From a virus (Duplodnaviria; Caudoviricetes), in IMG/VR virus record IMGVR_UViG_3300033076_000313, positions 1 through 62,369 of that record: a stretch of DNA of 62,369 nt; one strand, 5' to 3'. Below, one piece after another: positions 1,923-62,292 of this stretch (its first letter is position 1; the number at the start of each line of letters is the position of its first letter). Under the pieces are notes generated by a model. That model saw nothing but the letters and a program-made list of their open reading frames with translations. It did no database searches and had not been told where the DNA came from. The translations under genes and the position numbers were made by a program.

Positions 1923-2225
1923 ATGAACTACAAACTTGAAATCGAATCAGTAGACTTTGAATTTATCAAGGCAGCGCTCAAGCTCCGCACTCACGCAATC
2001 TTGGAAGACTTGGATATGCAAGTTAACGCGCAAATCATTCAGGCATCAACGCCAATTTCAGCAGAGGCATTCGGCCCATGCTCATTTGAATCTGCTCCAG
2101 TGAAAGCTGAAGGCCAGCCCGTCTCTTACACCGTCAACGTCGAGAAAAAGAAAAAGCCTCACTGGACTCAAACGCCCCGTGGAAAAAAGATAATGGCAGC
2201 CCGTAAACGCAAAGGCACAAAATGA
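1923..2225 (+). CDS. hypothetical protein with basic C-terminus
   Basis: AAGGA RBS; ATGA overlap with erf. Confidence 0.7.
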   Translation: MNYKLEIESVDFEFIKAALKLRTHAILEDLDMQVNAQIIQASTPISAEAFGPCSFESAPVKAEGQPVSYTVNVEKKKKPHWTQTPRGKKIMAARKRKGTK

Positions 2226-2938
2226 CAGTCCACTCAAAACTCATGGCGGCTCGCATCCAGCTGCAAGACACGCCTCTGAAAAAGACAGGCCACAACAAGT
2301 TTGCTGGCTACCACTACTTTGAATTGGGCGACTTCTTGCCCACCATCCAGAAAATCTTCCATGATCTGAACCTGTGCGGCGTTGTGTCCTATGAGCAAGA
2401 CATCGCCAAGCTGTGCATCACAGACATGGAAGACAACTCTGTCATCGTCATCACATCGCCAATGTCTACGGCCGCATTGAAGGGCTGCCACGAGGTCCAG
2501 AATCTGGGCGCAGTGCAGACTTACATTCGCCGTTACCTCTGGGTCACAGCCCTTGAGATCGTTGAGAACGACGTGCTTGATGCCACTACTGGTTCTGTTG
2601 AGCCTGCCAAGGCAAAGCCTGCACCAGCTCCAAAGCCAGCAGCCAAGCCCGCACCTGAGCCAACAGGCGCAGCGCCAGCAAAGATGGAAGGCCGTGAAGG
2701 CGAATGGCAATTGAAGGTCTCAGCCAAACCTGACACCGACATCGCCGTGTGGGCCGGTCTGGTTGACGACGCTACCACCATCATGCTGGAAGTCGTTAAA
2801 AACAAAGACGATGTGATGAACATCTTCAAAGCCAACCGCAACATCTATGACACGCTGAAGATCGAAGCCGAAGCCACATACAAAGTGGTGATGGACAAGT
2901 TCACAGCAGCAAAGAAATCTTTTGAAGGAACCGAATAA
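2222..2938 (+). CDS. erf: ERF-family single-strand annealing recombinase
   Basis: N-terminal KKTGHNKFAGYHYFELGDFLP and ERF signature-like QNLGAVQTYIRRYLW, followed by a Pro/Ala linker. Confidence 0.85.
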   Translation: MTVHSKLMAARIQLQDTPLKKTGHNKFAGYHYFELGDFLPTIQKIFHDLNLCGVVSYEQDIAKLCITDMEDNSVIVITSPMSTAALKGCHEVQNLGAVQTYIRRYLWVTALEIVENDVLDATTGSVEPAKAKPAPAPKPAAKPAPEPTGAAPAKMEGREGEWQLKVSAKPDTDIAVWAGLVDDATTIMLEVVKNKDDVMNIFKANRNIYDTLKIEAEATYKVVMDKFTAAKKSFEGTE

Positions 2939-3237
2939 TGGCAACGCAATACCCCAACAGCGGCAAGCTGTCCACCAACAAGTACAAAGAGGCCGGCGAT
3001 AAAAAGCCAGACATGCACGGTGAAATCACCATGACGCGCACAGCTCTGAAAGGTTTGCTGGAAGAGACTGACGCAGACGACGTGGTCATCAAGCTGTCGG
3101 CTTGGCACATGGAAGGCAGCTACGGCCCATGGATGCGCCTCGCTTGGAACAACTACAAGCCAAAGCCACAAGAGCAGCAGGCTCCACAGCAGCGTGCACA
3201 AGAGCCCGACGGCATGGATGATGACATTCCCTTCTGA
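2938..3237 (+). CDS. single-stranded DNA-binding protein-like
   Basis: Follows erf; Q/P linker and acidic tail MDDDIPF typical of SSBs. Confidence 0.7.
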   Translation: MATQYPNSGKLSTNKYKEAGDKKPDMHGEITMTRTALKGLLEETDADDVVIKLSAWHMEGSYGPWMRLAWNNYKPKPQEQQAPQQRAQEPDGMDDDIPF

Positions 3238-8000: not shown

Positions 8001-11000
8001 TCAGCAAACGACGGAACAGGCCAACCAACTTGGAGAATGCAGAGACATTCTTTTCGACCTCAACAGTCTTCAGATAGTCTTGGAAGATCATCTCTGTCAG
8101 GCCGTATGAGATCAGTTCGCTTACGTTCTGCAATTGTGGATTCGTGCGTCCAGATGCAGCCCATCTTGCATGGTTTGTCAAGAATGGATGCTTCTTACCG
8201 TTCTTGATGTCATGATTGACTTGACGGCGAATCTTCACCAGCAACGGAGTCAGCTCTTTGTAAAGCTGAGATTGATCGGCATATCCGCTTCTAACCAGAG
8301 TGCCCAACATCCAAGTCTGCGGCTGTGTCGCAGCATGCAACATCTCGTGCATGATGGTCTTGTAGTTTGAGCCAGAGTTCAGATGGCCATCTTTGGTTTT
8401 TGCATTCGCGCCATTGATCTCGACGTGAACGTGATATTTCCCACCTTTGATGCTTGCTGTGGCTGTGCCACCGGCATTGCGAGTTGTACGTGGCAAGACC
8501 TTGAAGGTCATTGGAATGCCAGAGTCTGTCATCGCTTTGATGCGAGCAGCAATCTTTTCAGCAATGTACTTGGCGACGCTGTTTGGTGCGTTATCAATCA
8601 ACCATTGGTTGGCTTGATTGATGTCCATGCCGGTGATTTCTTTTTCAACCTGCACGTCGTTCTTTGCGATGTCAAAAGCCTTTTGCTCTTCAGGCTCTTC
8701 AGCTGGCTTGTTGAACAGGTCTTCAGGTTCGGTAGGCTTCTCTTGCAGCGTCTTGAATACGTCTTCAAGAGGTAGCTGAGTCTTGTTGCCAAACATGTCT
8801 TGTTCAGCATTTGCCTGAGCAGCAGCTGTATCTGCCAGCTTGCCAAGCAACTCGCCCATGCGTTTACCAGAACGGCCGTTTTCAGCAAACATATCCAGCA
8901 CGGCGCGCGTGTTGGGGTCCATGCCGATGTCGCCTTGGTTGACGTAGTCTTTCAGCTTGATGCCTTGACGACGAGCGTTCACAGCCAGCTCGGCAGCGTC
9001 AATGATGTTCTGACGAATGTCGTACTGACCAGCGCCATCAAGCGCAGCAGCCTTCGATGCAGAACGTGCCAGAGCTTGCAAGATCAACTTGGCTTCTGGG
9101 TCTGCTGCCTGTGCGTACAGGTCGATCAAAGATGGGCTGCCATAAGCACGGTGGAAGATCGCATTGTTCAGGCGGTCAACGGCTTTGCTGTTTGGCATGC
9201 CGTTCTTGTCCATCAACTCGCCTTGCTCTTCTTTTGGCATGGCGCGCACAAACTGGATCAAAGAGTTCTTGTCGAACGATCCGTCGTCTTTGAAGTTGAT
9301 GCCATTGATGTCGAAACGGTTGCTGTCGTTGGCAGCCGTCTCAACAGGGTTCATGCGCAAGCCACCAGATACATTGGAAACATCGCCAATGTCAGGCGTC
9401 ACAAACGATTTAGGCATGACGCGGACAAGAACAGGATTCTCCATGTTCAAGATCGCACCTTGGTCAATGCCATGCTGTGTATCCATCTCCAAAGCATTGC
9501 GATAACCACCAGCTGTGTTTGCGCCGTAAGCTGCCTGTAAGCCAGCAATACGCCCGTTACCTGCCACGGCACGAATGCCCTGTTGGTTCATGTCGGCATA
9601 CGACTTGTTTGTCAGGCCATCTGCGCTATGCGATGTCATCAAGTCGCCAGCATCAACCACGGCATACTGAACTGGAATCTTACGGCCGTCTGACGCGGTG
9701 ACGACTTCCGTCTTGCCCATCTGGTTTTCTGGGATGCGGACATCGCTCATCACAACTGGAGCGCCATTGGCGAAATCGCTCGATGTCTTCAGGCGGTCAT
9801 AGTCAGGCTTGGCGCTGATGCCTTGCATTTGCTGGATGGATGCGGGCGTCGCACGATCACGGTTCTGCAAACGAGCAAACACGTCATGCGCGTCAGCAGA
9901 CAGACCCTTCTCATAGTCTTTGAGAGCGTCTTCAAATTCTTTGGCAACCTTCACTGGCTCGCCAGCAGGAGTCTCTTCTTTTGGAGGTGTACCCTCTTGT
10001 CCAACTGGCTCAGCAGGCGCAACTGGAGGAGCGGCTGGTGGCGTTACAGCTGGGACGTTTGCTTGTCCAGTAGGAGTCACTGGACCGGGCAGGATTTGTT
10101 CTGGAGCGCGACCTTGCACAGCGCCAACAGTAGCACCCATAGCACCAGCACCCAATGCAGCCAATGCGCCAGCACGGCCAACGCCTTCTGTAAGACTTTG
10201 GTCAGGATTGAACTGACGAGCAGCGACGTTCTGAGCGAACTGGCCGCCACCTTCTTCCACCATTTCACCGGGGATTTCTTTAAGTGCGCCAAGGCCAGCA
10301 CCAATAATGCGACCTGCATTGCCACGTTCACCGGCCAGTGCGCGTTCCATGGCTTGAGCGCCGGGCAGCTTGTTGGCCAACACAGAGATGGCAGCACCAG
10401 ACAAACCGGCCATGCGAGCGGCATTGATAGCTTGATCTGCGGCCTCTTCAGGTTTGGCACCCTTGGCCACCAAGTCGTCATAGATTTGCTGGTATGCACC
10501 AACGCCAACGTCTGCACCCTGTTGAACAGCTGCCGTACCAATAGAAGCAGCAGCGCCACGCGAGATGGCAGATTCTGACGCTTTCTTTACAGCCTCTCCT
10601 AAAGCACGCTCAGCGGCTTCTTTTGCGGCCACGGTGGTAGCAGACTTGGCAGCAATTTGCATTGCCTTCACTTCGGCAGCGGCCTCTGGTCCAACACCGG
10701 GGATCAGTGCAGCAAGGATAGATGGCAATGAGGCAGGAACCTGCTCAGCCAAGAACGAACCCAACTGGGCAGGATCAGTCAAAGACTCTGCAAGCTGGGT
10801 CTTGAGCGCGCCCCACTGGCCGCCTTCTTTCTCAGCCTGTTGTACCTTGGCTTGGGTTGCAGCTTCGCGTTGCTTCAGGCCGGCAGACTTGTGCTCCTGC
10901 GCCCACTCTTGCATGCCCTTGCCAATTCCTTGCAGGCCGGTGGTGCCAAAGTCTTGGTTCTTGATTGCGCCTGTGGCCAAACCAACCAGCTGACCGGGAA

Positions 11001-11196
11001 ACTGCAAGAGCTGACCAGTGCCAGACACCAAGCCTGCGCCGATGTCAGATACGTGCTCACCAAGAGAGATGTCTTTCTTGGTGAACTTCTCAAAGTTTGC
11101 TTGAGCGTATGCAAGAACCTCTTTTTCCGATGCGCCTTCTGGAGCTGTTACTTCAAATGTTTGACCATCTGGTGACGTTACTTCATAGGTCGGCAT
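5080..11196 (-). CDS. large polyvalent internal virion/ejection protein (ddrB-like ParB domain, HExxH metallopeptidase-like motif, LPD38-like C-terminus)
   Basis: 2038 aa; last gene of the virion module. YAVVDAGDLMTSH...GNGRIAGLQAAY (ParB-like), TIMHEMLHAATQ (HExxH), C-terminal NYDFFQGRPL..SPIAIDHIIRG resembling LPD38. Confidence 0.7.
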   Translation of the reverse strand: MPTYEVTSPDGQTFEVTAPEGASEKEVLAYAQANFEKFTKKDISLGEHVSDIGAGLVSGTGQLLQFPGQLVGLATGAIKNQDFGTTGLQGIGKGMQEWAQEHKSAGLKQREAATQAKVQQAEKEGGQWGALKTQLAESLTDPAQLGSFLAEQVPASLPSILAALIPGVGPEAAAEVKAMQIAAKSATTVAAKEAAERALGEAVKKASESAISRGAAASIGTAAVQQGADVGVGAYQQIYDDLVAKGAKPEEAADQAINAARMAGLSGAAISVLANKLPGAQAMERALAGERGNAGRIIGAGLGALKEIPGEMVEEGGGQFAQNVAARQFNPDQSLTEGVGRAGALAALGAGAMGATVGAVQGRAPEQILPGPVTPTGQANVPAVTPPAAPPVAPAEPVGQEGTPPKEETPAGEPVKVAKEFEDALKDYEKGLSADAHDVFARLQNRDRATPASIQQMQGISAKPDYDRLKTSSDFANGAPVVMSDVRIPENQMGKTEVVTASDGRKIPVQYAVVDAGDLMTSHSADGLTNKSYADMNQQGIRAVAGNGRIAGLQAAYGANTAGGYRNALEMDTQHGIDQGAILNMENPVLVRVMPKSFVTPDIGDVSNVSGGLRMNPVETAANDSNRFDINGINFKDDGSFDKNSLIQFVRAMPKEEQGELMDKNGMPNSKAVDRLNNAIFHRAYGSPSLIDLYAQAADPEAKLILQALARSASKAAALDGAGQYDIRQNIIDAAELAVNARRQGIKLKDYVNQGDIGMDPNTRAVLDMFAENGRSGKRMGELLGKLADTAAAQANAEQDMFGNKTQLPLEDVFKTLQEKPTEPEDLFNKPAEEPEEQKAFDIAKNDVQVEKEITGMDINQANQWLIDNAPNSVAKYIAEKIAARIKAMTDSGIPMTFKVLPRTTRNAGGTATASIKGGKYHVHVEINGANAKTKDGHLNSGSNYKTIMHEMLHAATQPQTWMLGTLVRSGYADQSQLYKELTPLLVKIRRQVNHDIKNGKKHPFLTNHARWAASGRTNPQLQNVSELISYGLTEMIFQDYLKTVEVEKNVSAFSKLVGLFRRLLKIDTQYQSALEQLAEVTERGLEVPVADIKSEAKKHGYTVGKKTLREESVKMPFGKKEQEPTPTGAGVQSMDILSQIGRGNQEADPNHLQNLNKLWNNARDNPKATAEAARQATTHWLDWLETKVFSSDAALNNRIMRGLKEMGKTNAERLGLLLNTSLSQTNHKDALAALFLQKGGLRWNEKLYKWEGVDKEDNIIKLSKQLDELASKNGLTKQKAELVAHTAFEAKRLRSILRFNSELEQEIADIRADADSKRDSDPVASNALYEKANRLQDQKKYVSDEQKAMIGPAMELFKIHPELNDLVDTWNKIRAEAVDTLVKTGVWSKEDAEEMLANADYVPFYREDQLEKNKGPKEYIRGLQIQAREHRLKGSDRPVNDIFDNQVRWLQYSIGRAVSNRSALAMADTAVEVGAAVRVSDKDRGGAPNVVRVWRDGKEEFFSMEDPMFMDAFKGLEAVVIPSWKWASSIANMLRQSVVMYPMFSVAQVPQDSFAAMFSSGLKPQFALRIPVLAVKEFVQTLRGASKTHDILKNVGAVGVRDFTAAMVRMDTEIYAGLKAPPGVLGKIKHSLNHIAMSADNAVRQAVYEASIAQGLSEAEAMEKSFEVFNIRRKGSSKSLALAGQMIPFFSAYLAAQNVAYKTITGRGISPTERQEAFKTLAATTASVMVLSLLYAMMNGDDDDYLKKPATQRDRLLMVPGTGGFSIPLRADLFTMPKIITEHMYLLMTDKGYEDGRKFRDSMNAALGSALLSPTVVPQAIKPLVEVGINYDFFQGRPLIGTYQQKLETERQFTDSTSEMAKILGSTGMASPIAIDHIIRGMFGSVGGLVLYATNPMLHSDPNSPRPSLSERDAIAALPGMSGFMTKSYESALKKDFYTLKEEVDKAANTMNDLKTRSPYEIEGFLAKEENLSRLGLQKSVNAIGEKLSNIRKAVTQISNSNMPADEKREQLKMLREAENEMLKGVDVKALRQLGKI

Positions 11197-24488: not shown

Positions 24489-27400
24489 TTACTGGAAGCT
24501 GTATACAGCCACGTCACACGTTTGAGCCCAACCGCCAGTATTATCTATGACGATTCGGTTAAACGCTGCGCTAAACGCACCGCGCAGTTCACCAAACCAG
24601 TACGTGCCGCCGTTCATGCCACGATAGAAAACGGTCAAATCGTTTGAACTTGAGCCGCCGACATAAATATCCATTTCTATCGTCGATTTCAACGGGCTTG
24701 TGGTGCTGTATGGAATCACTGGGCTTTGCGAAAACATGCCCGAGAAAATAGCTGTCGCAAACGAATTAGCTTGGTAAACGCTGTTTGACGGCACAGTACC
24801 TGTCGTGACGCTGTAATAGTAGCTGCCGCCACCCCGTGCATCGCTAAAAGTTGCGTTCGCAGAATCTTTGAATGTGACGCGCACATAGTTTGTCGATGTA
24901 GTTGCAGTCGAGTTGGTGTAGTTGCTGATAACGACTCTGAAATGCTTGTACGCAGTACCGTCAAGGGTGACCGTTGTCGAGTAAGTGTTAGCCGCAGTGA
25001 CGGCAATTTTTGTTGCGTTATGTACTGTTGCAGTTGCAGCATTTCCAGTAATACCAATACCCCAAGTACCAGAAGCACCGGAGCCGGTAAGGGAGGGGCT
25101 GTACGAGGTGTAGTTGCTTGCGTTTAAAACAATGTTGTTGTTTACATACGCATTTGATGGTGTAACAGCAAAAGCCGCTCCTGTCGCTGTAACGTTTCCG
25201 TTTGGATGAATCCCAATAGTATCAGCGCCGCCGATACCGGACGAACCTTGATAATAGCTAATACCGTAGCTAGTAGCATTGCCAAAATACCAAATTGGGT
25301 TACGGACGCCAGCGGACCAAGTTGCGTTGGCAAATCCGTTATTACCGCCCGACGTGACAAGCCCAGAAAAAGTTCCTGTTGTTGCGCTTAATGCGCCTGT
25401 AATGTTTACCCCAGTTGTAGACGAGGCTTGGTTCGAGCTTGCCGCCCAAACAAGTGTTCCACTTGGCGCAGTCGTTGAATACGAAGGCGCGTTATATAAC
25501 GTGGAACCGCCGGTGCCACCATACGTAATATCCACCAAGGCCCAAACAGTCGTCTTTACATATATGCTGACGTTATTGCTCGCGTCTTTATACACAAGCA
25601 AATCTTGGTTGCCGATGTTGCCACCTACATACCCTTGAACCGGAATGGAGCCTCCACGAGAGAATACTGATAGATTGATAGACGCCGCACCTTGGCTACC
25701 ACCTGCTGGTCCGTCATGACCGCCGATGTTGCCGCGAATAAACACGCTACCGTTGTTTGTGCTAATGAACGCAACTAGGTAATAGCGTGTGGTGGAATCA
25801 GAGCTTTGGTCAACGTACAGCTCATAACGCGGCGCTGCGTAACTACCGTAGTTAGCCGCATTAAGCACCTGATACCCGTTTTGTGTGATTGCACCTGTGG
25901 CAGAAAGCGTGCCTGTAACTGCTGCACCGTTTTCATCCGCCGTAAGGCTGGTCACCCAAGAAACGCCAGTGCCTGCGGCAGCCGTGCGCCACTCATGACG
26001 GCCATTACCAAGATGCTGGATGTACGCAAACTTTTTCTTGGCTGGATCGTCTTCGACCCACGAACCGCTAAACAATGCGTTGGTGGTGAAGTTAAGGCCG
26101 TTGCCGTCCGAACCTAGGCGTGCTTGCGCTGTGACGCCGGATGTCACAAGCGCCCACTTTAACCATGTGGATGCTGTCAGTGTTGAGGATGCTTCTGGGT
26201 TACAAGCGCCAAACACTTGCAAGTTGCGCGTATCACCAAACAACTTCATCATTGAGCGACCATTTACATAGTCATAGACCTCAAAGTTTTTGTAGGTGCC
26301 TGCGGTCCCGCCCCAATTGAGGCCAAGTAACGCGAAGCTGCCTCCGTCAGCATCTGCTGCGGTAAAGTAAATACGTGCGTTTGTACTTTGAAAAGTCCCA
26401 GCAATGGTCGTGCCAGTCAACGTTCCAGTCAACGTACCGCCAGTCAACGGCAAATACGTTCCGCTAAGAGATGGGATGTCGGACGCTTGAATCGCGGACA
26501 TCGTTACGTTGGTGCCGTCACCACGCAAATACTGCCCTGCTGTTGTCGCGCCAGCAAGGGCGTTCATCGCTGCTTGTGCCGAAGCCTGCCCTGTACCGCC
26601 GTTAGCAAGGGGTAACGTGCCACTCACATGCGTAGCCAAACCGATCTTGCCCCATGAAGGAGCCGAACTGACACCTCCAGAGATGAGTGCATTGCCTACC
26701 GCGACGTCGGCCAGTTTGGCCAACGAAGTGGTTGTGTTCGCATACAGCAGATCACCCACGGCGTATGACGCAAACCCTGTGCCGCCGTAAGTCGGGCCAA
26801 TGGTGCTTGCGTTCCAAGTTCCAGCAGCCAGCGTACCAACGCCAGTGATGCCGGTATAACTGCCAGACAACCGTGCTGTGCCGAGCGTACCGCTAGAAAT
26901 GTTGGAAGCGTTGGTTGTGTCTGTGGTGGCCGATGCGGCCAAGCCTGTGATGTCAGACGCGGCGGGTTGTTGCCATACGGGAGCAGCAGAGCCTGTGCCC
27001 GTACCTGTTTGTCCCAAGAATTTCTTGGTTGTGGTTGTGTTGCCGGACAGAACAGTCAGTGTGTTTGTCGATGGCGAATACAGCATGTCGCCAACTGCGT
27101 ATGCGTTCTGTCCTGTACCACCGTTGGTTGCTGGTAAAGAGCCAGACACTGCGCCTGATTGGTCAAGGGCTACACCATTCCACTCAACGTTTGTGCCGGA
27201 GCCATTGACAACCAAGGACTTGTATGCGGAACCAACAGGAAGCTTTGACCATGTATTGGTAGCGGAGCCGTACAGCAAATCACCTGTGGCCACCGTAGCC
27301 GTACCTGTACCGCCCAGCGTGGCTGGAACGGTGGTCAACGACAGGGTATTTCCGCTCAACTGCAAAGGCGAGTTAACCACGTATTGAGGGACAGAACTGA

Positions 27401-28682
27401 ACTGGCTAAACGTGATGTTTGTGGTGCCAAAAGTAATCACGCCTACAGTCGTGCAGGTGTACGACTCGAACGCCGCAGTGTCCCCCTCCTGAACGAAGAA
27501 ATACGCTCCTTCGTCGAGTGCGTTAGGATTGTTCACTCCATACGTGTTTGCATCCGAAGCACGTGTCAGCACCCAGTTTGTAGAGCCTGAACCGATGTTG
27601 GTGACGACATACACGCCGTTTTGTGTTTGGTTGGTTTGGTCCATGACCAGCACGCGGTCATTTACGGCCATAGTTATGCCGTCCAAAACCAAAGCGGTCT
27701 GCGTCCCGGCGTTTGTCAGTGTGGCTCCAACACCTGCGGTTCCGTTGTTGTACGTGGCGTTAAGGTTGCCAATTGCTTCCACGCGCACTGCGGGGTGCAC
27801 GGTCAAGCCAGCGGATGCTGCGTTATCCACATACGCTTTAGTCACAAACTCATTTGTCGCGGGAGACGTCATCGACGAAGTGGTTGTAACAGGCGCAGTA
27901 AAAGTGCCACCCTGCGCGTTCACGTCGCCTGTCACGTTGATGCTGGCCGTTGTGGTCAGTTCTTTTGTGAGCTTGTCAAAGCGTGCGGCTTCGTCAGCAG
28001 GCGTTACACCGCCAGTGAAGAAAATCAAGTCGTCAGTACCACTACCGACAAACATCTCACCGCCGTCACCATACAGGTACATCGAGCCCGCAGTGAAGAT
28101 CGGCCAAGTCAAGGACGAGAAGTTTGAGCTGTTGATGCCCATGTCCATGAAGTTGGCTGAATCAGAAACCGTGTTGTCACGGTAGACGATCATGTCAGCG
28201 GAGGCTTCTGCACCATCGTTCAAGTTGCGTGCATAAAGCTGCGCAAACGAATCCACATTGCCGTACATCTCGCCAAGCGCGGCGGAGAATGTTGTGTACC
28301 CAGTGACGCCATTACCAACAACCGTGATCGGGCCGCCGTCAATCAAGACGTTGCCAGACGCTTCTTCGTAGATAGCTTTCTTGGCTGGGTATGTGATAAA
28401 CAGGTCTTTTGGACCGGAAGCAAAAGAAATCTTGTTTGTGGTAGCCGCGCTGTTGTCAAGGACCGTGTCGCGCACCAGCGTCCCGCCAGCCGCCGTCGTG
28501 TACTGGCCGATACCAACTTCCCAATCACCTGTGGCTTGGTCGTAGCAACAGTAATAGGTGAAGTTGTTTGCACCGATCACAGAGAATGAGTCGTATCCAG
28601 ACGAAGAGCCGCCAAGAACAAAATCAGCCGTGCCTGTTGTAGCTGTGGTTTCTTTTACGCGGTCTTTTAAAACAATAGCCAT
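24489..28682 (-). CDS. long tail fibre protein (1397 aa)
   Basis: LKDRVKETTATTGT N-terminus, TKAYVD..DRVLVMDQTNQTQNGVYVV..LTRASDA domain, three GGTG..GD(L/M)LY repeats, VLNAxNY repeats. Confidence 0.85.
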   Translation of the reverse strand: MAIVLKDRVKETTATTGTADFVLGGSSSGYDSFSVIGANNFTYYCCYDQATGDWEVGIGQYTTAAGGTLVRDTVLDNSAATTNKISFASGPKDLFITYPAKKAIYEEASGNVLIDGGPITVVGNGVTGYTTFSAALGEMYGNVDSFAQLYARNLNDGAEASADMIVYRDNTVSDSANFMDMGINSSNFSSLTWPIFTAGSMYLYGDGGEMFVGSGTDDLIFFTGGVTPADEAARFDKLTKELTTTASINVTGDVNAQGGTFTAPVTTTSSMTSPATNEFVTKAYVDNAASAGLTVHPAVRVEAIGNLNATYNNGTAGVGATLTNAGTQTALVLDGITMAVNDRVLVMDQTNQTQNGVYVVTNIGSGSTNWVLTRASDANTYGVNNPNALDEGAYFFVQEGDTAAFESYTCTTVGVITFGTTNITFSQFSSVPQYVVNSPLQLSGNTLSLTTVPATLGGTGTATVATGDLLYGSATNTWSKLPVGSAYKSLVVNGSGTNVEWNGVALDQSGAVSGSLPATNGGTGQNAYAVGDMLYSPSTNTLTVLSGNTTTTKKFLGQTGTGTGSAAPVWQQPAASDITGLAASATTDTTNASNISSGTLGTARLSGSYTGITGVGTLAAGTWNASTIGPTYGGTGFASYAVGDLLYANTTTSLAKLADVAVGNALISGGVSSAPSWGKIGLATHVSGTLPLANGGTGQASAQAAMNALAGATTAGQYLRGDGTNVTMSAIQASDIPSLSGTYLPLTGGTLTGTLTGTTIAGTFQSTNARIYFTAADADGGSFALLGLNWGGTAGTYKNFEVYDYVNGRSMMKLFGDTRNLQVFGACNPEASSTLTASTWLKWALVTSGVTAQARLGSDGNGLNFTTNALFSGSWVEDDPAKKKFAYIQHLGNGRHEWRTAAAGTGVSWVTSLTADENGAAVTGTLSATGAITQNGYQVLNAANYGSYAAPRYELYVDQSSDSTTRYYLVAFISTNNGSVFIRGNIGGHDGPAGGSQGAASINLSVFSRGGSIPVQGYVGGNIGNQDLLVYKDASNNVSIYVKTTVWALVDITYGGTGGSTLYNAPSYSTTAPSGTLVWAASSNQASSTTGVNITGALSATTGTFSGLVTSGGNNGFANATWSAGVRNPIWYFGNATSYGISYYQGSSGIGGADTIGIHPNGNVTATGAAFAVTPSNAYVNNNIVLNASNYTSYSPSLTGSGASGTWGIGITGNAATATVHNATKIAVTAANTYSTTVTLDGTAYKHFRVVISNYTNSTATTSTNYVRVTFKDSANATFSDARGGGSYYYSVTTGTVPSNSVYQANSFATAIFSGMFSQSPVIPYSTTSPLKSTIEMDIYVGGSSSNDLTVFYRGMNGGTYWFGELRGAFSAAFNRIVIDNTGGWAQTCDVAVYSFQ

Positions 28683-55267: not shown

Positions 55268-55682
55268 TGTGGGTCTCCCGTTGTGTCCATCCAATTAAAA
55301 AATACCGCCATTTGGTTTGAATGTTTGGCGTGTTGTATGTCTTACCGTTCCAATGGACTTCTTTGCCCTTGGCCTTCATGTAAGCCTCAAAAACCTGTCG
55401 TGCTTTTGTCATTACTTTTTTCCTGTTAATAGCGCCCGATCAAGGGCTCTGACGGTGGCTTTGAGCTGGGCTACCTGTGCCTCTAGCTCTGCCAACCTAC
55501 GTTCAAGCTGCTCCCTGCTGGGCTTCTCCGCCCTGTACGGGGCTGTCACTCCGATTGGTTTCCTGTTGTTCATCTTTGTGTTCCTGCTTCTTCTTACCCC
55601 AGATCAAGTCGTAGTTTGAACTGAACTTGTTGTGGTCTGTAGGCCGTTGGCTGTCGCCTTTACCGCCATCACCGTGCGTCAT
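55257..55682 (-). CDS. three small coupled ORFs (55503-55682 MTHGDGGKGDSQRP..., 55412-55573 ..LAELEAQVAQ.., 55257-55412)
   Basis: Translated by hand; start/stop overlaps. Confidence 0.5.
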
Positions 55683-55987
55683 GCAACCTCCTTCACAAAC
55701 ACGCCGTCTGCGTTGAGATAGCCCTTGCGATCTTTGATCTCGTTGTAGGCAACCTTCAAGCATGAAACCAAGTCGATGTCTGCTATGACGCAACCCATGA
55801 TGAGCGTCACCAAGATGTCGCCGTATGCGTCGATCATGCCTTCGCGATCATCAGATTTGATGGCGTCAAACAATTCCATCAATTCTTCGTTTGTCTTACG
55901 GGCCTGTGCAAGTGGCGTGCTGTTCTGCACAATTCCACGGGCCTCACCCCAGCGGATCACATCTAGTTCTAGTTCACGGTAGCTCAT
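55679..55987 (-). CDS. MazG-like nucleotide pyrophosphohydrolase
   Basis: WGEARGI..KTNEELMEL..DAYGDILVTL..AYNEIKDRKG..GVFVKE. Confidence 0.85.
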   Translation of the reverse strand: MSYRELELDVIRWGEARGIVQNSTPLAQARKTNEELMELFDAIKSDDREGMIDAYGDILVTLIMGCVIADIDLVSCLKVAYNEIKDRKGYLNADGVFVKEVA

Positions 55988-56295
55988 GTTCGTTTCGCTT
56001 TCTGTTTCAAGTTGTTAATCAATTCGTCAGTGACCTCTTTCATGGTCATGTTCTGCTGTGCTTTGGTCAGAATTGGAACCTTGATTGGCTTTGGACTTCG
56101 GTGGATGTAGGACGGAACCTTTGTCACGCCTTCAATAGTGCCGTGGTTTGGTACTGTTTCCCTCCTCTTCTCGACGTACTTCGACAGTGTCTGTCCTGCT
56201 TTCTTTTGCTTGGCTTCGTTCTTCAAGCTGGTCAAAAGTTCAGGATGATACGTCTTGACATAGTCAGGATGGAATGCGTTGATGACTTGCTTCAC
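55984..56295 (-). CDS. hypothetical protein
   Basis: GTG start; INAFHPDY. Confidence 0.65.
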   Translation of the reverse strand: MKQVINAFHPDYVKTYHPELLTSLKNEAKQKKAGQTLSKYVEKRRETVPNHGTIEGVTKVPSYIHRSPKPIKVPILTKAQQNMTMKEVTDELINNLKQKAKRT

Positions 56296-56388
56296 TCTGT
56301 AGTCTCCAAGTAGTAAATAAAACCGATGAGAATGGCAACCGTAGCGCTCACGCCAACTGCCATCAATAAAACCATAAGGGCGATATTT

Positions 56389-56574
56389 TCAAGCATCGCC
56401 ACCCCTGTTTACACGGCACTGCAAAGCCCAGCCCCAAACCAATCCCCAGATCACCCAGACCCAGCGATCTGCATACGGCCAAAACTCAGGGTCTCGGTTC
56501 CAATTGATGAGCCCAAACAAAACATACACCGCACACAGCATGAGCGGATATGCGATAAGGTCAATGTATTTCAT
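56389..56574 (-). CDS. small membrane protein
   Basis: AAGGAG RBS; two hydrophobic segments. Confidence 0.65.
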   Translation of the reverse strand: MKYIDLIAYPLMLCAVYVLFGLINWNRDPEFWPYADRWVWVIWGLVWGWALQCRVNRGGDA

Positions 56575-56577
56575 GTC

Positions 56578-57096
56578 TTACTCCTTTGATGTGATGCCGT
56601 GGGCGGCTTCGATGGCGGCGCGTGCAAACATACGCAGGTCTTCTGCATCGCACAGTTGCCCATACTCTTGTCGGTGAAGATCAGCGAGTTTGTCTAGGTC
56701 TTCATCCGTCAGCGGCTTGCGCTGTTGTTGAGTGGTGTAGAGAGGCTGCACCTTTTCTTCTCCAAGCCATTCCACAGCCTCTGCAACCAGCTTCTTATCA
56801 TCAGACAGGCTCCATTGCTTCCAAGTTTTTGATGACAACCAGCGCCAAGCCACAGGTTCCTGCTCTGGCTGTGCCACCTGCGCCTCAAGTTCAGCAATGC
56901 GCATCGCTTGGTTGTATGTCTTTTCTTGCAGGTCTTGGCATATTGCGTCTAGGTCGGGTTGCTCTGGCTGTGCCAAGGCTTCTTTGATAGCGGTGATGGC
57001 TTTACGAATAGCAGAACCAGGCAAGTTGTAACCTTCATTCTGTGTTTTTTCCAACGCCTCAAGCGCCAGCTTCAATGCTTCTGTTTTCTTATCCAT
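56578..57096 (-). CDS. mosaic array paralogue F
   Basis: MDKKTEALKLALEALE...AITAIKEALAQPEQ...AAHGITSKE. Confidence 0.75.
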   Translation of the reverse strand: MDKKTEALKLALEALEKTQNEGYNLPGSAIRKAITAIKEALAQPEQPDLDAICQDLQEKTYNQAMRIAELEAQVAQPEQEPVAWRWLSSKTWKQWSLSDDKKLVAEAVEWLGEEKVQPLYTTQQQRKPLTDEDLDKLADLHRQEYGQLCDAEDLRMFARAAIEAAHGITSKE

Positions 57097-57436
57097 TGTT
57101 CTTCTCCTTGAGTTTGGCTTCAACTTTGCGCATTGCTAGTTCAGGTACAGTTTCCCAACAGTTGGCACGTTCCTCATTCGTCAGTCCAACCCATGTGCGC
57201 TGTGGTGGGGTGGTGTTTTCTTGCGCTATAACAAGTCGCTTCTCTCCAAATCCCCAAGGCTCTTTGCGCCAATCTTTTTCCACAGGCTCCTGCTCTGGCT
57301 CTTTGGGCTGTGCCAAGGCTTCTTCGATGGCGGTGATGGCTTCACGAATAGCAGAACCAGGCAAGTTGTAACCTTCATTCTGTGTTTTTTCCAACGCCTC
57401 AAGCGCCAGCTTCAATGCTTCTGTTTTCTTATCCAT
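57089..57436 (-). CDS. mosaic array paralogue E
   Basis: MDKKTEALKLALEALE...WVGLTNEE...EAKLKEKNNG. Confidence 0.75.
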   Translation of the reverse strand: MDKKTEALKLALEALEKTQNEGYNLPGSAIREAITAIEEALAQPKEPEQEPVEKDWRKEPWGFGEKRLVIAQENTTPPQRTWVGLTNEERANCWETVPELAMRKVEAKLKEKNNG

Positions 57437-57827
57437 TGTTCTTCTCCTTGAGTTTGGCTTCGATGGCTTCAATTACTTTGCGAAAAGCTTGATTTCGGTA
57501 GACCATGTTTGTTTGTATATCCTTGACCTCCTCAGGCGTCAGTCCAACCCATGTCATGTCACTGCGTGACGGGCGCTGTGGTATTTCGTCTTGACCCCAT
57601 ATTCCACAACTTATGCAACGCATTTGACCAACTTTCATTGTGCCAGTCCTAAACCATTCATGTTTGTGTGAAACTTTTACAGGCTCCTGTTCTGGCTGTG
57701 CCAAGGCTTCTTTGATAGCGGTGATGGCGTTCTCATGCAAAAACGCTGGATAGCCTTCAAAGCCATCTTTCCAAAGTCCTTCCAACGCCTCAAGCGCCAG
57801 CTTCAGCGCCTCTGTTTTCTTATCCAT
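57429..57827 (-). CDS. mosaic array paralogue D
   Basis: MDKKTEALKLALEALE...HKHEW..CISC..WVGLTPEE...EAKLKEKNNG. Confidence 0.75.
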   Translation of the reverse strand: MDKKTEALKLALEALEGLWKDGFEGYPAFLHENAITAIKEALAQPEQEPVKVSHKHEWFRTGTMKVGQMRCISCGIWGQDEIPQRPSRSDMTWVGLTPEEVKDIQTNMVYRNQAFRKVIEAIEAKLKEKNNG

Positions 57828-58335
57828 TGTTCTTCTCCTTGAGTTTGGCTTCGGCCCATCGCACCGCCTTTCGCATCGTCTTGCTGTCGCAAGGACAGTA
57901 AGGATTGTTGACGCTGAACGTCTGGTCACGGCCCTTCTCAATCTCCTCCTCCGTCAGTCCCACCCACGGCTTGCGCTTATGTGACTCCGTCACGGGTGGG
58001 GGGGCGGTGAGCAGGCCAACAATCTGCTCTGCCAACGCTTTTCGTGCTGCGTTGTGCGTATATCGGTAGTCGTAGTTGATGTGAACGTAAACGAATTCAC
58101 CACCAAGGCGAATGTCAACGCCACCGAGAAAGTCGTAACCAACCTCAATGCCTTCTGCGACCTTTTCAAATTGCACAGGTGGCAACGCCATAGGCTCCTG
58201 CTCTGGCTGTGCCAAGGCATTTAAACCTTGTTCAATTACTTCTGTGCGCTTTTCTTGTAGCTCTGGACTGTGAAATGTTCCAACAGCCAATAGCTCAAGC
58301 GCCAGCTTCAGCGCCTCTGTTTTCTTGTCAGTCAT
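57820..58335 (-). CDS. mosaic array paralogue C
   Basis: MTDKKTEALKLALELL...ALAQPEQEP...WVGLTEEE...EAKLKEKNNG. Confidence 0.75.
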   Translation of the reverse strand: MTDKKTEALKLALELLAVGTFHSPELQEKRTEVIEQGLNALAQPEQEPMALPPVQFEKVAEGIEVGYDFLGGVDIRLGGEFVYVHINYDYRYTHNAARKALAEQIVGLLTAPPPVTESHKRKPWVGLTEEEIEKGRDQTFSVNNPYCPCDSKTMRKAVRWAEAKLKEKNNG

Positions 58336-58633
58336 CTTTTTCCCCACATTCGCAATGTTCCATCCCACAATCAATGCAAACGCTGTCATCACAGATTGGC
58401 TCCTGCGGCTGTGACGGTTGAGCCAAAGGACACTCTAGGTCAAATCCACCGCAATCATTGCAATGAGGTTGCTGTGCTGGATGCTCAGCACCCGGGGATT
58501 CCTCGGCCAGTGCTTCGCGGATGGCGGTGATGGCGTTCTCATGCAAAACCGCTGGATAGCCTTCAAAACCATCTTTCCAAAGTCCTTCCAACGCCTCAAG
58601 CGCCAGCTTCAAAGCCTCTGTTTGTTTTGTCAT
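58328..58633 (-). CDS. mosaic array paralogue B (Cys-rich tail)
   Basis: MTKQTEALKLALEALE...CNDC..CIDC..CEC. Confidence 0.75.
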   Translation of the reverse strand: MTKQTEALKLALEALEGLWKDGFEGYPAVLHENAITAIREALAEESPGAEHPAQQPHCNDCGGFDLECPLAQPSQPQEPICDDSVCIDCGMEHCECGEKDD

Positions 58634-58636
58634 GTC

Positions 58637-59218
58637 TTACTCCTTGATGCCGTGGGCGGCTTGCCATGCTTTCCAAAGGTCTGCCGTCATAGGACTGAGA
58701 ACGACCCACTCACCTGTGTCCGAATTGCACGTCTGGGCGCAGTCATACCCTTGTGCACCAGCCCACTTGATGAACTCTTTGAACTGCGGCTTGCGCTGTT
58801 GTTGGTCAGTAGATGATTGATCCATCATTACTGTTCGTGCCAATGCTTCGCATGTTGGACAGGGTTGTGGTTTCTCATACAAAGCAATCGCGCCTTCGTC
58901 TGTTTCGGCGCAATCTGTCCAGCCAAAAGGCTCAGGTTTGAAATAACCGAATGGCTCCTGCTTATGTGTCTCCGTCACGGCTGACTGTGCCACTTGAGCC
59001 TCAAGCTCCTCAATGCGCTGCGCTTGCTTCTGAATCGTCAATGTCATCTCGTTGATTGCTTCGTCGGCGTAATCTGGGTGGAACTGGTTGACTGTCTTTG
59101 GCTGTGCCAAGGCTTCTTTGATAGCGGTGATGGCTTCACGTTGAAACTCTGAATTTGTTTCCAACACATACATTTCCAACGCCTCAAGCGCCAGCTTCAA
59201 TGCTTCACGTTCTTTCAT
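58637..59218 (-). CDS. mosaic array paralogue A
   Basis: MKEREALKLALEALE...AITAIKEALAQP...AAHGIKE. Confidence 0.75.
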   Translation of the reverse strand: MKEREALKLALEALEMYVLETNSEFQREAITAIKEALAQPKTVNQFHPDYADEAINEMTLTIQKQAQRIEELEAQVAQSAVTETHKQEPFGYFKPEPFGWTDCAETDEGAIALYEKPQPCPTCEALARTVMMDQSSTDQQQRKPQFKEFIKWAGAQGYDCAQTCNSDTGEWVVLSPMTADLWKAWQAAHGIKE

Positions 59219-59601
59219 GCCATTCCCAGTTCTTGTTCCATGCGTTGATAAATCTTGACTGCATCGTCCACCACGTCGATTGGCGTCATGCCGATCAACT
59301 CTTCTGATGCAATCAGGCCGGCGTAGATTGAGCCGCGATCTACGGGCGTGATGGCAGGCTTGTTCTTCAGGTCATCAAGGGCATTGATTGAACCTTGGAT
59401 GATGCGAAACCGCACATCGGTATCTGAAGTGCCCATGTGGGCAGCGCAGGCACTTGCTACGAACATGAGCACTGAGCCGTATGCCAGAAGCTTGTCTTTG
59501 TTTTCACCGATCAAGGCGTGAATCTGTGCGTTGACAAGTTCTGATGCCCACTTGGCCCGCATCTGTGCGCGCAAGACTGGGTGAATGGTTTTTCTTTTCA
59601 T
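59215..59601 (-). CDS. hypothetical protein
   Basis: Start MKRKTIHP (GGAG RBS). Confidence 0.7.
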   Translation of the reverse strand: MKRKTIHPVLRAQMRAKWASELVNAQIHALIGENKDKLLAYGSVLMFVASACAAHMGTSDTDVRFRIIQGSINALDDLKNKPAITPVDRGSIYAGLIASEELIGMTPIDVVDDAVKIYQRMEQELGMA

Positions 59602-59876
59602 GATTTCACTCCGCAAACAATTTCCATGTAAGCCACATAGACCTGATCGGCCGTGTGGAATGTGCGCTTGTCATCTGGTAGGTAGTAAAAGCTCTTGGGG
59701 TTACCAAACAAACGACCTTGCTTGTAGGGCGTGATGGTCACCTTGTTCACGCCAGTGCTGTGGTTGACGCGGTGCAGGTAGTGTTCTTTGTCGCCAGAGA
59801 TGTGTAAGACCAGTTGCATAGGCAGTGCACAGAACTCTTCAAAGGTGTACTCTGGTCTAAGGCAGTCTGGTTTCAT
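59598..59876 (-). CDS. hypothetical protein
   Basis: ATGA overlaps with neighbours. Confidence 0.65.
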   Translation of the reverse strand: MKPDCLRPEYTFEEFCALPMQLVLHISGDKEHYLHRVNHSTGVNKVTITPYKQGRLFGNPKSFYYLPDDKRTFHTADQVYVAYMEIVCGVKS

Positions 59877-61274: not shown

Positions 61275-61362
61275 TGGCGGATGGTGTTGGGATCGAACCA
61301 ACGCGCCCCTTGCGGGACGACAGGTTAGCAACCTGCTGCCTTAACCTCTCGGCCAACCATCC
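61275..61362 (-). tRNA. tRNA-Ser(GCT)
   Basis: GGATGGT acceptor stem, anticodon loop TTGCTAA, long variable arm, GGTTCGATCCC, encoded CCA. Confidence 0.92.
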
Positions 61363-61363
61363 T

Positions 61364-61437
61364 TGGCATCCCGACAGGGAATCGAACCCCAGATAACGGA
61401 CTTGGAAACCGTTGTGTTACCACTACACCATCGAGAA
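61364..61437 (-). tRNA. tRNA-Trp(CCA), atypical
   Basis: D arm GTGT-AGTGGTA-ACAC, loop TTCCAAG, TTCGATT T loop, G73, CCA; several mismatches and wobbles. Confidence 0.75.
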
Positions 61438-61442
61438 ACAAC

Positions 61443-61530
61443 TGGCGGAAGAGGTGAGATTCGAACTCACGGAGCCTTTCGACTCGACAGTTTTCAAGAC
61501 TGCTGCATTAAACCGCTCTGCCACTCTTCC
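61443..61530 (-). tRNA. tRNA-Ser(TGA)
   Basis: GGAAGAG acceptor, loop CTTGAAA, long variable arm, GTTCGAATC, CCA. Confidence 0.93.
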
Positions 61531-61610
61531 AAATTTGGCCGGTGACGATTATCCGGCTCGTATGTTGATGCGCTTCCACCCCAATGGGGATGCTCGCCTA
61601 CGACGAATCT

Positions 61611-61686
61611 TGGTGCCGACTCTCAGATTCGAACTGAGGCTCTCCCGCTTACAAGGCGGGTGCAGTGACCACTTTGCTAAGTCGGC
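61611..61686 (-). tRNA. tRNA-Thr(TGT)
   Basis: GCCGACT/AGTCGGC acceptor, CCCGC-CTTGTAA-GCGGG, GTTCGAATC, ACCA. Confidence 0.9.
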
Positions 61687-62065
61687 GTTTATATTCTTTG
61701 TTGTGCGCACTTTTTGCCGCCACGCACAGTGAGCATTTGCAATACCTGTACTCGGTTAATGTTCCATGTTTTGGAACCCTGACAGCTTTGCGATGCTCAT
61801 GGTTTTTGACTTTGTTTTCATGACCAGTCAAGATTTGAAGGTTGTCCAAACTGTCGTTTGTTTTGTCTTCGTCTTTGTGATCAACCTCCTCCTCGTCCGT
61901 CAAGTACCTTCCAATCTTCACTGCCATCAAGTACCTAGCGTAACTTGTGACAGTCCTGTCTTTGTTGCTGTTGTAAAGAACAACATACTTCCTGCCGTCT
62001 TTGCTTTCCTGCAAATAACCACGGCGCCAGTCAGTAGAGTAAGGTGCGGACAATTCGTATCTCAT
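61649..62065 (-). CDS. free-standing HNH homing endonuclease
   Basis: YARYLM..EEVDHKDEDKTNDSLDNLQILT..EN (HNH_3-type) and a C-terminal HG..Y..CKC..C motif; located in the tRNA cluster. Confidence 0.85.
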   Translation of the reverse strand: MRYELSAPYSTDWRRGYLQESKDGRKYVVLYNSNKDRTVTSYARYLMAVKIGRYLTDEEEVDHKDEDKTNDSLDNLQILTGHENKVKNHEHRKAVRVPKHGTLTEYRYCKCSLCVAAKSAHNKEYKRRLSKVVTAPAL

Positions 62066-62083
62066 GCACGAATTATACACGAC

Positions 62084-62110
62084 TTGCTCTACCAACTGAG
62101 CTACAAGGGC
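62084..62110 (-). pseudogene. orphan 5' half of a tRNA
   Basis: GCCCTTG-TA-GCTC-AGTTGGTA-GAGC-A directly after the tRNA-Asn CCA; no matching CAAGGGC 3' acceptor strand downstream. Confidence 0.75.
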
Positions 62111-62185
62111 TGGCTGCCAAGGCTGGGATCGAACCAGCGACCAACAGATTAACAGTCTGCTGCACTACCGCTGTGCTACTTGGCA
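62111..62185 (-). tRNA. tRNA-Asn(GTT)
   Basis: TGCCAAG acceptor, GCAGA-CTGTTAA-TCTGT, GGTTCGATCC, GCCA. Confidence 0.93.
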
Positions 62186-62205
62186 AAAACTTTGGGGAGG
62201 GGTCT

Positions 62206-62292
62206 TGGTGGGGATGGCTGGATTCGAACCAACTCAACGTAGAAGTAACAGATTTACAGTCTGCCGTGCCTCACCAACTGCACCGCATCCCC
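62206..62292 (-). tRNA. tRNA-Tyr(GTA)
   Basis: GGGGATG acceptor, GCAGA-CTGTAAA-TCTGT, long variable arm, GGTTCGAATCC, ACCA. Confidence 0.9.

Follow-up and report, generated by a model that had tools for sequence, protein, structure and literature searches.

Six adjacent genes on the minus strand of a Caudoviricetes virus record from a freshwater phage (IMG/VR IMGVR_UViG_3300033076_000313) form a tandem array at 56578-59218, in which constant linkers and variable modules are combined in different ways. The window analysed is the whole record of 62,369 bp, the completeness of which is estimated at 99%. The array is a real feature: it belongs to a new and very large protein family, of which it is an extreme case, yet a known kind of process explains it. 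We consider it probable that the array is a lineage-specific tandem expansion, to six genes, of this unannotated mosaic family through homologous recombination at in-frame linkers. Module exchange between phages, variable copy number and the concentration of similarity on the constant DNA are shown by the comparisons reported below.

Results

The six genes are co-directional, and each overlaps or abuts the next; their starts were set by the conserved N-terminus together with the ribosome-binding site (RBS). Gene A (58637..59218, 193 aa) encodes an N-terminal hairpin, a coiled-coil piece (ELEAQVAQ), the FGYFK and CPTC modules and an AAHGIKE tail. Gene B (58328..58633, 101 aa) has an N-terminal hairpin with a D-type loop and an acidic tail with eight Cys, and is devoid of a C-terminal hairpin. 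In gene C (57820..58335, 171 aa), a diverged N-terminal hairpin is followed by a middle domain of 60-70 aa (GGVDIRLGGEFVYVHINYDYRYTHNAAR) and by WVGLT...AKLKEKNNG. The latter also closes, as a hairpin, gene D (57429..57827, 132 aa; N-terminal hairpin with a B-type loop, HKHEWF...CISCG beta module) and gene E (57089..57436, 115 aa; N-terminal hairpin with an F-type loop, short middle). In gene F (56578..57096, 172 aa), an N-terminal hairpin with an E-type loop leads into a coiled-coil helix; a small alpha/beta domain, flanked by EPVAW and PLYTT, comes next, followed by a PLTDEDL...AAHGI hairpin.

The motif EALKLALE is present in all six proteins at residues 5-13, and the longest k-mer common to the six genes is the 17-mer TGAAGCTGGCGCTTGAG. 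With at most two mismatches it occurs six times in the 62,369-bp record, always within the array; shuffled sequences give 0.03 expected occurrences, and none of 100 shuffles reaches six. This confirms the original prediction of six adjacent genes marked by EALKLALE and an invariant 17-mer. The predicted sharing of blocks is likewise recovered by protein alignment: GLWKDGFEGYPAxLHEN is common to B and D, KTQNEGYNLPGSAIR to E and F, ELEAQVAQ, QQQRKP and AAHGI to A and F, VTExHK to A and C, and WVGLTxEE...AKLKEKNNG to C, D and E, while AITAIxEALAQ is found in A, B, D, E and F and, in a diverged form, in C. The sharing is not nested, since D combines the front of B with the tail of C and E, and F combines the front of E with the tail of A; simple duplication is therefore insufficient, as had been claimed.

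At the DNA level, the largest repeat is a unit of 156 nt, 98% identical between the D-end/E-start (57306-57461) and the E-end/F-start (56966-57121), which spans the last 33 nt of one gene and the first 131 nt of the next. The front ends of B and D share 87% identity across 143 nt and 92% across 118 nt. The middles of the genes give no DNA alignment to one another within the array.

The gene junctions are also conserved. The three junctions C>D (57811..57852), D>E (57420..57461, within the first copy of the 156-nt repeat) and E>F (57080..57121, within the second copy), all on the minus strand, share an identical stretch of exactly 42 nt (-25 to +16 relative to the ATG), which contains AAGGAG, the ATG and an overlapping TAA. 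The claim of a junction that carries RBS, start and stop in three identical copies is thus correct. A second type of junction (…HGIKE, stop, ATG) joins A to B (58630..58662, minus) and F to a downstream open reading frame (ORF) of 61 aa (56571..56609, minus), the two junctions sharing exact matches of 16 nt and 18 nt. Genes B and C overlap by 8 nt, and the ATG of gene A overlaps the stop of the upstream 133-aa gene (ATGA). Two tiny hydrophobic ORFs lie downstream of gene F on the minus strand, one of 61 aa (56389-56574) and one of 36 aa (56292-56402); the former is membrane-like, is joined to F by the junction of the A>B type, and has a homologue in the related locus L240 (49% identical).

Coupling signals of this kind extend beyond the array. 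Among 132 ORFs that end in the C-terminal hairpin, a Shine-Dalgarno-like site is present in the last 25 nt in 111, an ATG lies within -10..+15 of the stop in 120, and the ATGA overlap is found in 85. Judging by these counts, the gene boundary is a portable coupling cassette, and the conserved C-terminus serves in part as a signal for the next gene. A promoter scan gave 3 promoter-like sites versus 5.6 expected, none of them in the array, and a terminator scan gave 8 terminator-like sites versus 8.8 expected.

Modules of the array are found in other proteins and in other contexts. The loop of A is 86% identical in 77-78 aa proteins of other phages; the FGYFK module of A is 83-90% identical in four other architectures; and the 54-aa tail of A, 93% identical, ends a chain of modules 439 aa long that also bears the coiled-coil piece of F. 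This piece of F is also found, 97% identical, in a 159-aa protein. In all, proteins that differ in length from A, C and F contain pieces of these three, 82-97% identical and differently placed; modules do move between phages. The middle domain of C was found in 40 further proteins (105-288 aa), some of which have the N-terminal hairpin and some of which lack it. Residues 41-82 of A, the Cys-rich tail of B and the loop of C have no relatives within the limited comparison set.

The similarity of DNA between loci is concentrated on the constant blocks. High-scoring segment pairs with an identity of 85% or more link the array to up to 46 of the loci compared on constant blocks and to 0-2 on variable pieces; the exception among the latter is the coiled-coil piece of F, with 110 nt at 92.7% identity to locus L018. 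At least 120 viral contigs contain the exact 17-mer; of the 80 that were examined, 68 have it within an N-hairpin gene. Codon choice in the blocks depends on the position and is nearly fixed: Ala in LKLALE is encoded by GCG in 22 of 23 cases, versus 14% GCG elsewhere in the same genes, and Lys is encoded by AAG in 22 of 23 cases in LKLALE and by AAA in 15 of 15 in AIKEALAQ. The blocks would thus be homologous DNA of limited divergence that flanks replaced segments. They are read here as shared ancestry and not as proof of selection at the DNA level, in view of a control with MazG homologues that is given in the Discussion.

The family is very large. For gene D, 3005 of the 8000 candidates scored are relatives at E≤1e-3, and many of these match over the full length with 50-66% identity; an exhaustive search with gene F gave 1572 representative clusters at E≤1e-3, of which 97 reach E≤1e-10. 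The matches of F cover separate parts of it, at varied positions in proteins of 53-439 aa. All the relatives are unnamed metagenomic proteins. The family is acidic, with a median isoelectric point (pI) of 5.15 and 90% of the values below pI 6.

The six genes themselves have no real match in Pfam, PHROGs or NCBIfam; the best profile match among them, PF24128 for gene B, is below the cut-off. In a comparison of 150 relatives with Pfam, five families were each hit by a single member (E 3e-4 to 1e-3), and none by two or more. In the protein P0326, the insert slot flanked by the two terminal hairpins is taken by a WDGH domain (PF25311, E 2.2e-35), the sole Pfam domain seen in the family; no paper on this domain was found among those listed by a literature search. 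The C-terminus of P0303 was considered as a DUF551 domain, and this assignment was dropped (no Pfam match at E≤0.1). Atlas searches gave unnamed nearest clusters, with scores of at most 0.77 for the named ones, and a search of PDB sequences with a profile of D gave only designed helical proteins (E 0.078 and 0.41). A search by motif strings found no published description of the family; supplements and subscription journals were beyond its reach.

Among cultured phages, blastn with the array gave four records with short matches. A tblastn search with F gave ten records, nine of which are Ralstonia phages that match only residues 129-164 of F, i.e., its last helix pair, in "hypothetical proteins"; the tenth is an uncultured Caudoviricetes that matches residues 33-164 at 42% identity. 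A single match was obtained in species-representative genomes, in a metagenome-assembled genome of Burkholderiales, and one relative of the middle domain of C is present in an Acidovorax genome. The family is found mainly in freshwater metagenomes, and its carriers are probably phages of Burkholderiales.

For the counting of copies, relatives of D served to build hidden Markov models (HMMs) of the two hairpins, N- and C-terminal. In 149 family-anchored loci, the number of N-hairpin genes per locus is 0 in 18, 1 in 110, 2 in 18 and 3 in 3; six, in the array studied, is the largest count seen. Eighty loci were anchored on the helicase gene (69-90% identity), 25 of them with at least 7 kb upstream; 22 of these 25 relatives have no N-hairpin gene on the same strand, one has one and two have two. 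Anchoring on the MazG gene gave 80 loci that are mostly not syntenic for the array (64 without an N-hairpin gene), and anchoring on the 133-aa or the 103-aa flanking gene gave no relatives in viral contigs.

The best syntenic relative, L241 (a contig of 62.7 kb with a helicase 86% identical), keeps the 133-aa gene (65% identical), the 103-aa gene and the MazG gene. In place of the array, its slot at 5363-6484 (~1.1 kb) is filled with six unrelated small ORFs, each 52-68 aa long; the only member of the family in L241, of 234 aa, is located outside the slot. The same six genes in relatives had been named in advance as a sign against the original prediction; they are not found there, relatives holding 0-3 and L241 other ORFs. 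Going by the copy numbers and the contents of the slot in L241, the slot is a hyperplastic region bounded by conserved genes, and the six-gene array is lineage-specific.

Three relatives (P0264, P0312 and P0320) contain two or three N-terminal hairpins per polypeptide and look like read-through fusions of neighbouring family genes.

According to alignments, the constant frame starts with M(T)K-EALKLALEALE, a variable loop and AITAIKEALAQPEQEPVAW, after which come the variable module or modules; it ends with PLYTTPPQR and WVGLTDEE or KPLTDEEI, a variable stretch, and (F)ARAIEAKLKEKNT or FARAIEAAHGIKE. EALKLALEALE, the loop and AITAIKEALAQ make up the N-terminal helical hairpin, and a C-terminal helical hairpin is often present (WVGLTDEE or PLTDEEI ... 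AIEAKLKEKN or AIEAAHGI). The linkers are rich in Pro, Glu and Gln (PEQEPVAW, PLYTTPPQR), and the optional inserts are a coiled-coil helix, a Cys/His beta module, a small alpha/beta domain or larger domains. The coiled-coil motif of genes A and F is also seen, as LAELEAQVAQ, in a 53-aa ORF (55412-55573, minus) between the MazG and the ParB-like gene.

The AlphaFold model of D (pLDDT 70.6, pTM 0.31) shows a helical hairpin, followed by a small beta unit and then by another pair of helices; that of F (pLDDT 85.1, pTM 0.45) has a hairpin, a long helix, a confident alpha/beta unit at 83-119 and a second hairpin. Both models look like beads on a string, which agrees with the low pTM values. Modelling two copies of the N-terminal hairpin (residues 1-48 of D) as a homodimer gave a score of 0.17 (mark 0.42), which speaks neither for nor against binding. 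A fold search of BFVD gave only uncharacterised proteins of uncultured phages, and Foldseek against PDB gave no match at E≤1e-3. The best Z in VIA-align was 6.9; it covers only the helices at 1-75 and is within the noise of helical models. The fold searches as a whole barely probed the alpha/beta and C-terminal parts.

The assembly was examined with contigs of four public runs placed on 56300-59700 (X17, X18 and X19 from one study, X1 from another). In X17, which is possibly the source sample itself, error-free contigs carry the unique segments of F, D, C, B and A at depths of 137.6, 152.3, 158.2, 128.5 and 169.2, and the flanks have nearly equal depths (153.8 and 150.9); this pattern fits one genome. 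The same unique segments are present without differences, at low depth, in X18 and X19. Variants of the array, which the original prediction proposed to seek in reads, were not seen in the contigs of these three runs of one study. Contigs of all four runs break at the repeats, none spans the array, and the gene order is without independent confirmation.

Bins over the constant blocks in X17 reach a depth of 3876, versus ~150 for the unique segments, and the depth is 10-25 times that of the unique segments at 57098-57211, 57668-57781 and 59150-59263. The X17 community therefore contains many further sequences that bear the constant blocks. The flanks are also found in X1, 95-98% identical and with a depth of ~326-330. 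One X1 contig (depth 326) contains the upstream gene with 17 differences in 376 nt and then joins a 25-nt match at 58198-58222 instead of gene A, a weak hint of a close relative with a different array. Bins over the unique segments of A, B and C have depth 0 in X1, and we do not take this as evidence of absence.

Nearly all genes of the record are on the minus strand, from ~60.5 kb down to 5 kb, and the array is near the start of this run. Upstream of it are a cluster of six tRNA genes and four small genes, and downstream are the genes for MazG-like, ParB-like, DEAD/ResIII helicase and Toprim proteins. The variable slot is delimited on one side by the conserved 133-aa gene (59215..59616, minus), to which no function is assigned, and on the other by the conserved 103-aa gene (55984..56295, minus) and the next, MazG-like gene (55679-55987, minus). 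An ERF-family single-strand annealing protein, a candidate trans-acting recombinase, is encoded on the plus strand at 2222..2938 and adjoins an SSB-like gene (2938-3237, plus); it belongs to a general recombination module and is ~5.5 kb from the array across the record ends, on the opposite strand. In relatives, the neighbours of family genes (150 ORFs sampled from 454) are mostly replication and recombination genes: helicases, HNH, RusA, NinB, ERF, Sak, DnaB, DNA polymerase A and MazG-like.

No match to a reverse transcriptase (RVT_1), a serine recombinase (Resolvase) or a tyrosine integrase (Phage_integrase) was found in the 99%-complete record, and the array region (56300-59700) has no inverted repeats of 16 nt or longer. 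The statement that neither a reverse transcriptase nor an invertase is required is thus upheld. Since no integrase, resolvase or reverse transcriptase was found in so complete a record, the phage may be virulent.

The tRNA genes (Ser-GCT, Trp, Ser-TGA, Thr, Asn and Tyr) are located at 61275-62292 on the minus strand. An HNH endonuclease ORF (61649-62095, PF13392) separates tRNA-Thr from tRNA-Asn and overlaps the former with its 3' end. Two very long ORFs of 2038 and 1397 aa (5080-11196 and 24489-28682, minus) are in the presumed structural region.

Discussion

We propose the following explanation. The constant pieces would be homologous DNA common to many phages, and the segments between them would be replaced wholesale. 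All the constant pieces are read in one frame, and the gene end also encodes the Shine-Dalgarno site and the next start. Whether it takes place between paralogues or between co-infecting phages, a crossover in any constant piece would then yield a chimera or a tandem duplicate that is in frame and translationally coupled, because the pieces share the frame and the gene end carries the Shine-Dalgarno site with the overlapping start; that the product is in frame, as the original prediction stated, is true by construction. The exchanges and duplications presumably occur by general recombination on homologies of 17-156 nt, carried out by an Erf-type annealing protein or by the host RecA. Judging by their position, the array genes are probably expressed early, alongside the replication genes.

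Several points weigh against this explanation. No recombination event is seen directly: the unique segments are identical in X17-X19, and the contigs break at the repeats. The fraction of identical codons is 0.56-0.81 in the blocks (unbiased loci) versus 0.52-0.54 in 67 distinct MazG homologues, and synonymous conservation of the blocks thus appears only modestly above that of an ordinary conserved gene. This control leaves unproven an additional DNA-level selection on the linkers, or for recombination sites. The related loci are fragments with a median of ~9-10 kb, and the copy numbers in them are lower bounds; the HMMs of the hairpins, built from relatives of D, may also miss diverged copies. 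Early expression is deduced from position alone, the promoter and terminator scan giving no signal above chance. The fold searches (BFVD, PDB Foldseek, VIA) gave no informative match that would point to a function of the proteins.

Lambda Ea22 is the closest known system in kind, by likeness and not by homology. PMC10834534 describes Ea22 as an early protein of the exo-xis region with a common N-terminal and coiled-coil part and unrelated acidic C-terminal domains, encoded by "mosaic" genes. Like Ea22 (PF13935), the proteins considered here look like accessory proteins of an early region near recombination genes, with a constant N-terminal part and acidic, swappable C-terminal domains, and the family has the mosaic build of Ead/Ea22-like proteins. 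It differs from Ea22 in having several internal constant linkers, a far greater variety of modules and six tandem copies. PF13935 (Ead_Ea22) has no match in the six genes at E≤1, in 150 relatives at E≤1e-3, or in 10 long relatives; the sole link is an Atlas feature score of 0.77, which is below the level of a lead. DUF551 (PF04448) has no match in the same three sets, and its structural similarity in Atlas (TM 0.28) is below the bar.

Other known systems share some of the features. The PeSL cassettes in hyperplastic regions of T4-type phages are short conserved DNA bordering small non-essential ORFs, which are shuffled by homologous recombination (PMC2839356 and PMC4122927). PeSLs are intergenic units of promoter and terminator, whereas the conserved DNA of the array is coding sequence (linkers and hairpin helices) plus the Shine-Dalgarno/stop/start overlap; a sigma-70 promoter with a stem-loop terminator is not found between the array ORFs, which overlap or abut. 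Rad52-like phage recombinases (Red-beta, Erf, Sak) act on short diverged homologies and drive mosaicism, according to PMC3945230. The phage with the array encodes ERF and in this respect resembles the setting of relaxed Rad52-type recombination, a mechanism that is general and not specific to this locus. A diversity-generating retroelement and an invertase shufflon are both excluded for this record: there is no RVT_1, the variable pieces are unalignable and of unequal length, and neither Resolvase or Phage_integrase matches nor inverted repeats are present in the scope given above. What is new is the form: the recombination-competent constant DNA is coding and in frame, and is located inside genes as well as at their ends.

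Recombination at linkers has to be compared with an explanation at the protein level only. According to it, the constant pieces are constrained scaffold helices, and the variable ones are fast-evolving loops or inserts under diversifying selection, with no special recombination of DNA. The constant pieces do match predicted helices and the variable ones loops or inserts, and the excess of codon identity over the MazG control is small. However, the variable pieces differ in length (5-60+ aa) and in fold class and cannot be aligned; point mutation cannot yield modules that recur at 82-97% identity in different positions and with different partners; and the sharing of blocks inside the array is non-nested. 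We consider this explanation improbable.

It is tempting to regard the N-terminal module as a targeting tag, an address label by which diverse small proteins would reach the virion, for injection, or a common hub of the phage or host. A constant N-terminus is indeed present on otherwise unrelated bodies in thousands of proteins. A precedent is given by the internal proteins of T-even phages (IPI, IPII and IPIII), small diverse proteins of a polymorphic locus in which only the N-terminal capsid targeting sequence (CTS) is conserved; PMC3012670 reads this highly diverse set as countering host defence, restriction included. The family resembles them in being small, very diverse proteins with a conserved N-terminal sequence. 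The N-terminal hairpin also has Leu-x-Glu motifs. The T4 prohead protease cleaves after motifs of the Leu-x-Glu type. Nevertheless, the CTS is a short cleaved leader on late proteins packaged in the head, whereas the module in question is a helical hairpin of ~45 aa, predicted to be folded, and its genes are among those for replication and recombination and not among head genes; in the fused P0264, P0312 and P0320 the hairpin is internal as well. A targeting tag is accordingly given little credence here.

The original prediction went further than recombination and suggested a dedicated diversification system: an active accordion, re-sorted at high frequency through ERF, that makes new effector chimeras within a population. 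The in-frame constant blocks and identical coupling cassettes would suit such a system, as would the 98% identity of the 156-nt repeat, which implies a very recent duplication or conversion, and the presence of ERF in the phage; the X1 contig that joins the upstream gene to 58222 is a hint that the array of a close relative is built differently. Against this, X17, X18 and X19 show no variants within the population; one copy in 110 of 149 family loci indicates that an array is not the norm; ERF is distant, on the other strand and in a general recombination module; the recombinases of relatives are varied (ERF in 2, Sak in 1 and YqaJ in 1 of the 150 sampled ORFs); and the X1 joint has a side of only 25 nt and an insert of unknown nature. 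Recombination and domain swapping are therefore retained from the prediction, and its dedicated system is not, since general mosaicism gives the same signature; we hold such a system to be quite unlikely. As for the suggestion that ERF powers the exchange, the gene is indeed encoded at 2222-2938, and its role as the agent is plausible by analogy; nothing specific ties it to the array.

An assembly artefact, i.e., strain variants or block-sharing phages stitched into a false tandem array, is very unlikely: the constant blocks are common to many co-occurring phages (depth 3876 versus ~150) and no contig spans the array, but the near-equal depth in X17 of the unique segments of F, D, C, B and A (128.5-169.2) and both flanks, their recurrence without differences in X18 and X19, the longest repeat of only 156 nt, the intact overlapping stop/start at every junction and the estimated 99% completeness of the record all speak against it.

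We return to tandem expansion by recombination at in-frame linkers and to what the proteins may do. They could be adaptors for host interaction or counter-defence, with the N-terminal hairpin as a common handle; this assignment is possible but rather doubtful. The position among putative early replication genes, the small size, the acidity, the Cys/His mini-domains and the rapid turnover between related phages fit it.

A broader proposal is a population-wide in-frame "splice kit": the linkers and the Shine-Dalgarno/stop/start cassette would let co-infecting freshwater phages build early proteins from hundreds of mini-domains, and the hairpin would let paralogues co-assemble or dock on one hub. 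We mention it as a speculation with a small chance of being correct. If it is true, the six-gene array would be a multi-headed counter-defence toolkit, similar to the internal proteins of T-even phages and produced by recombination that resembles exon shuffling.

Conclusions

Naming the constant blocks would allow a sizeable piece of the "dark matter" of freshwater phages to be annotated. The family presents an unusually clean natural case of domain shuffling at in-frame linkers, with the coupling signal included, and makes mosaicism testable at a scale below that of the gene. If the variable modules are domains for counter-defence or host takeover, the constant blocks would provide a handle for harvesting many of them from metagenomes.

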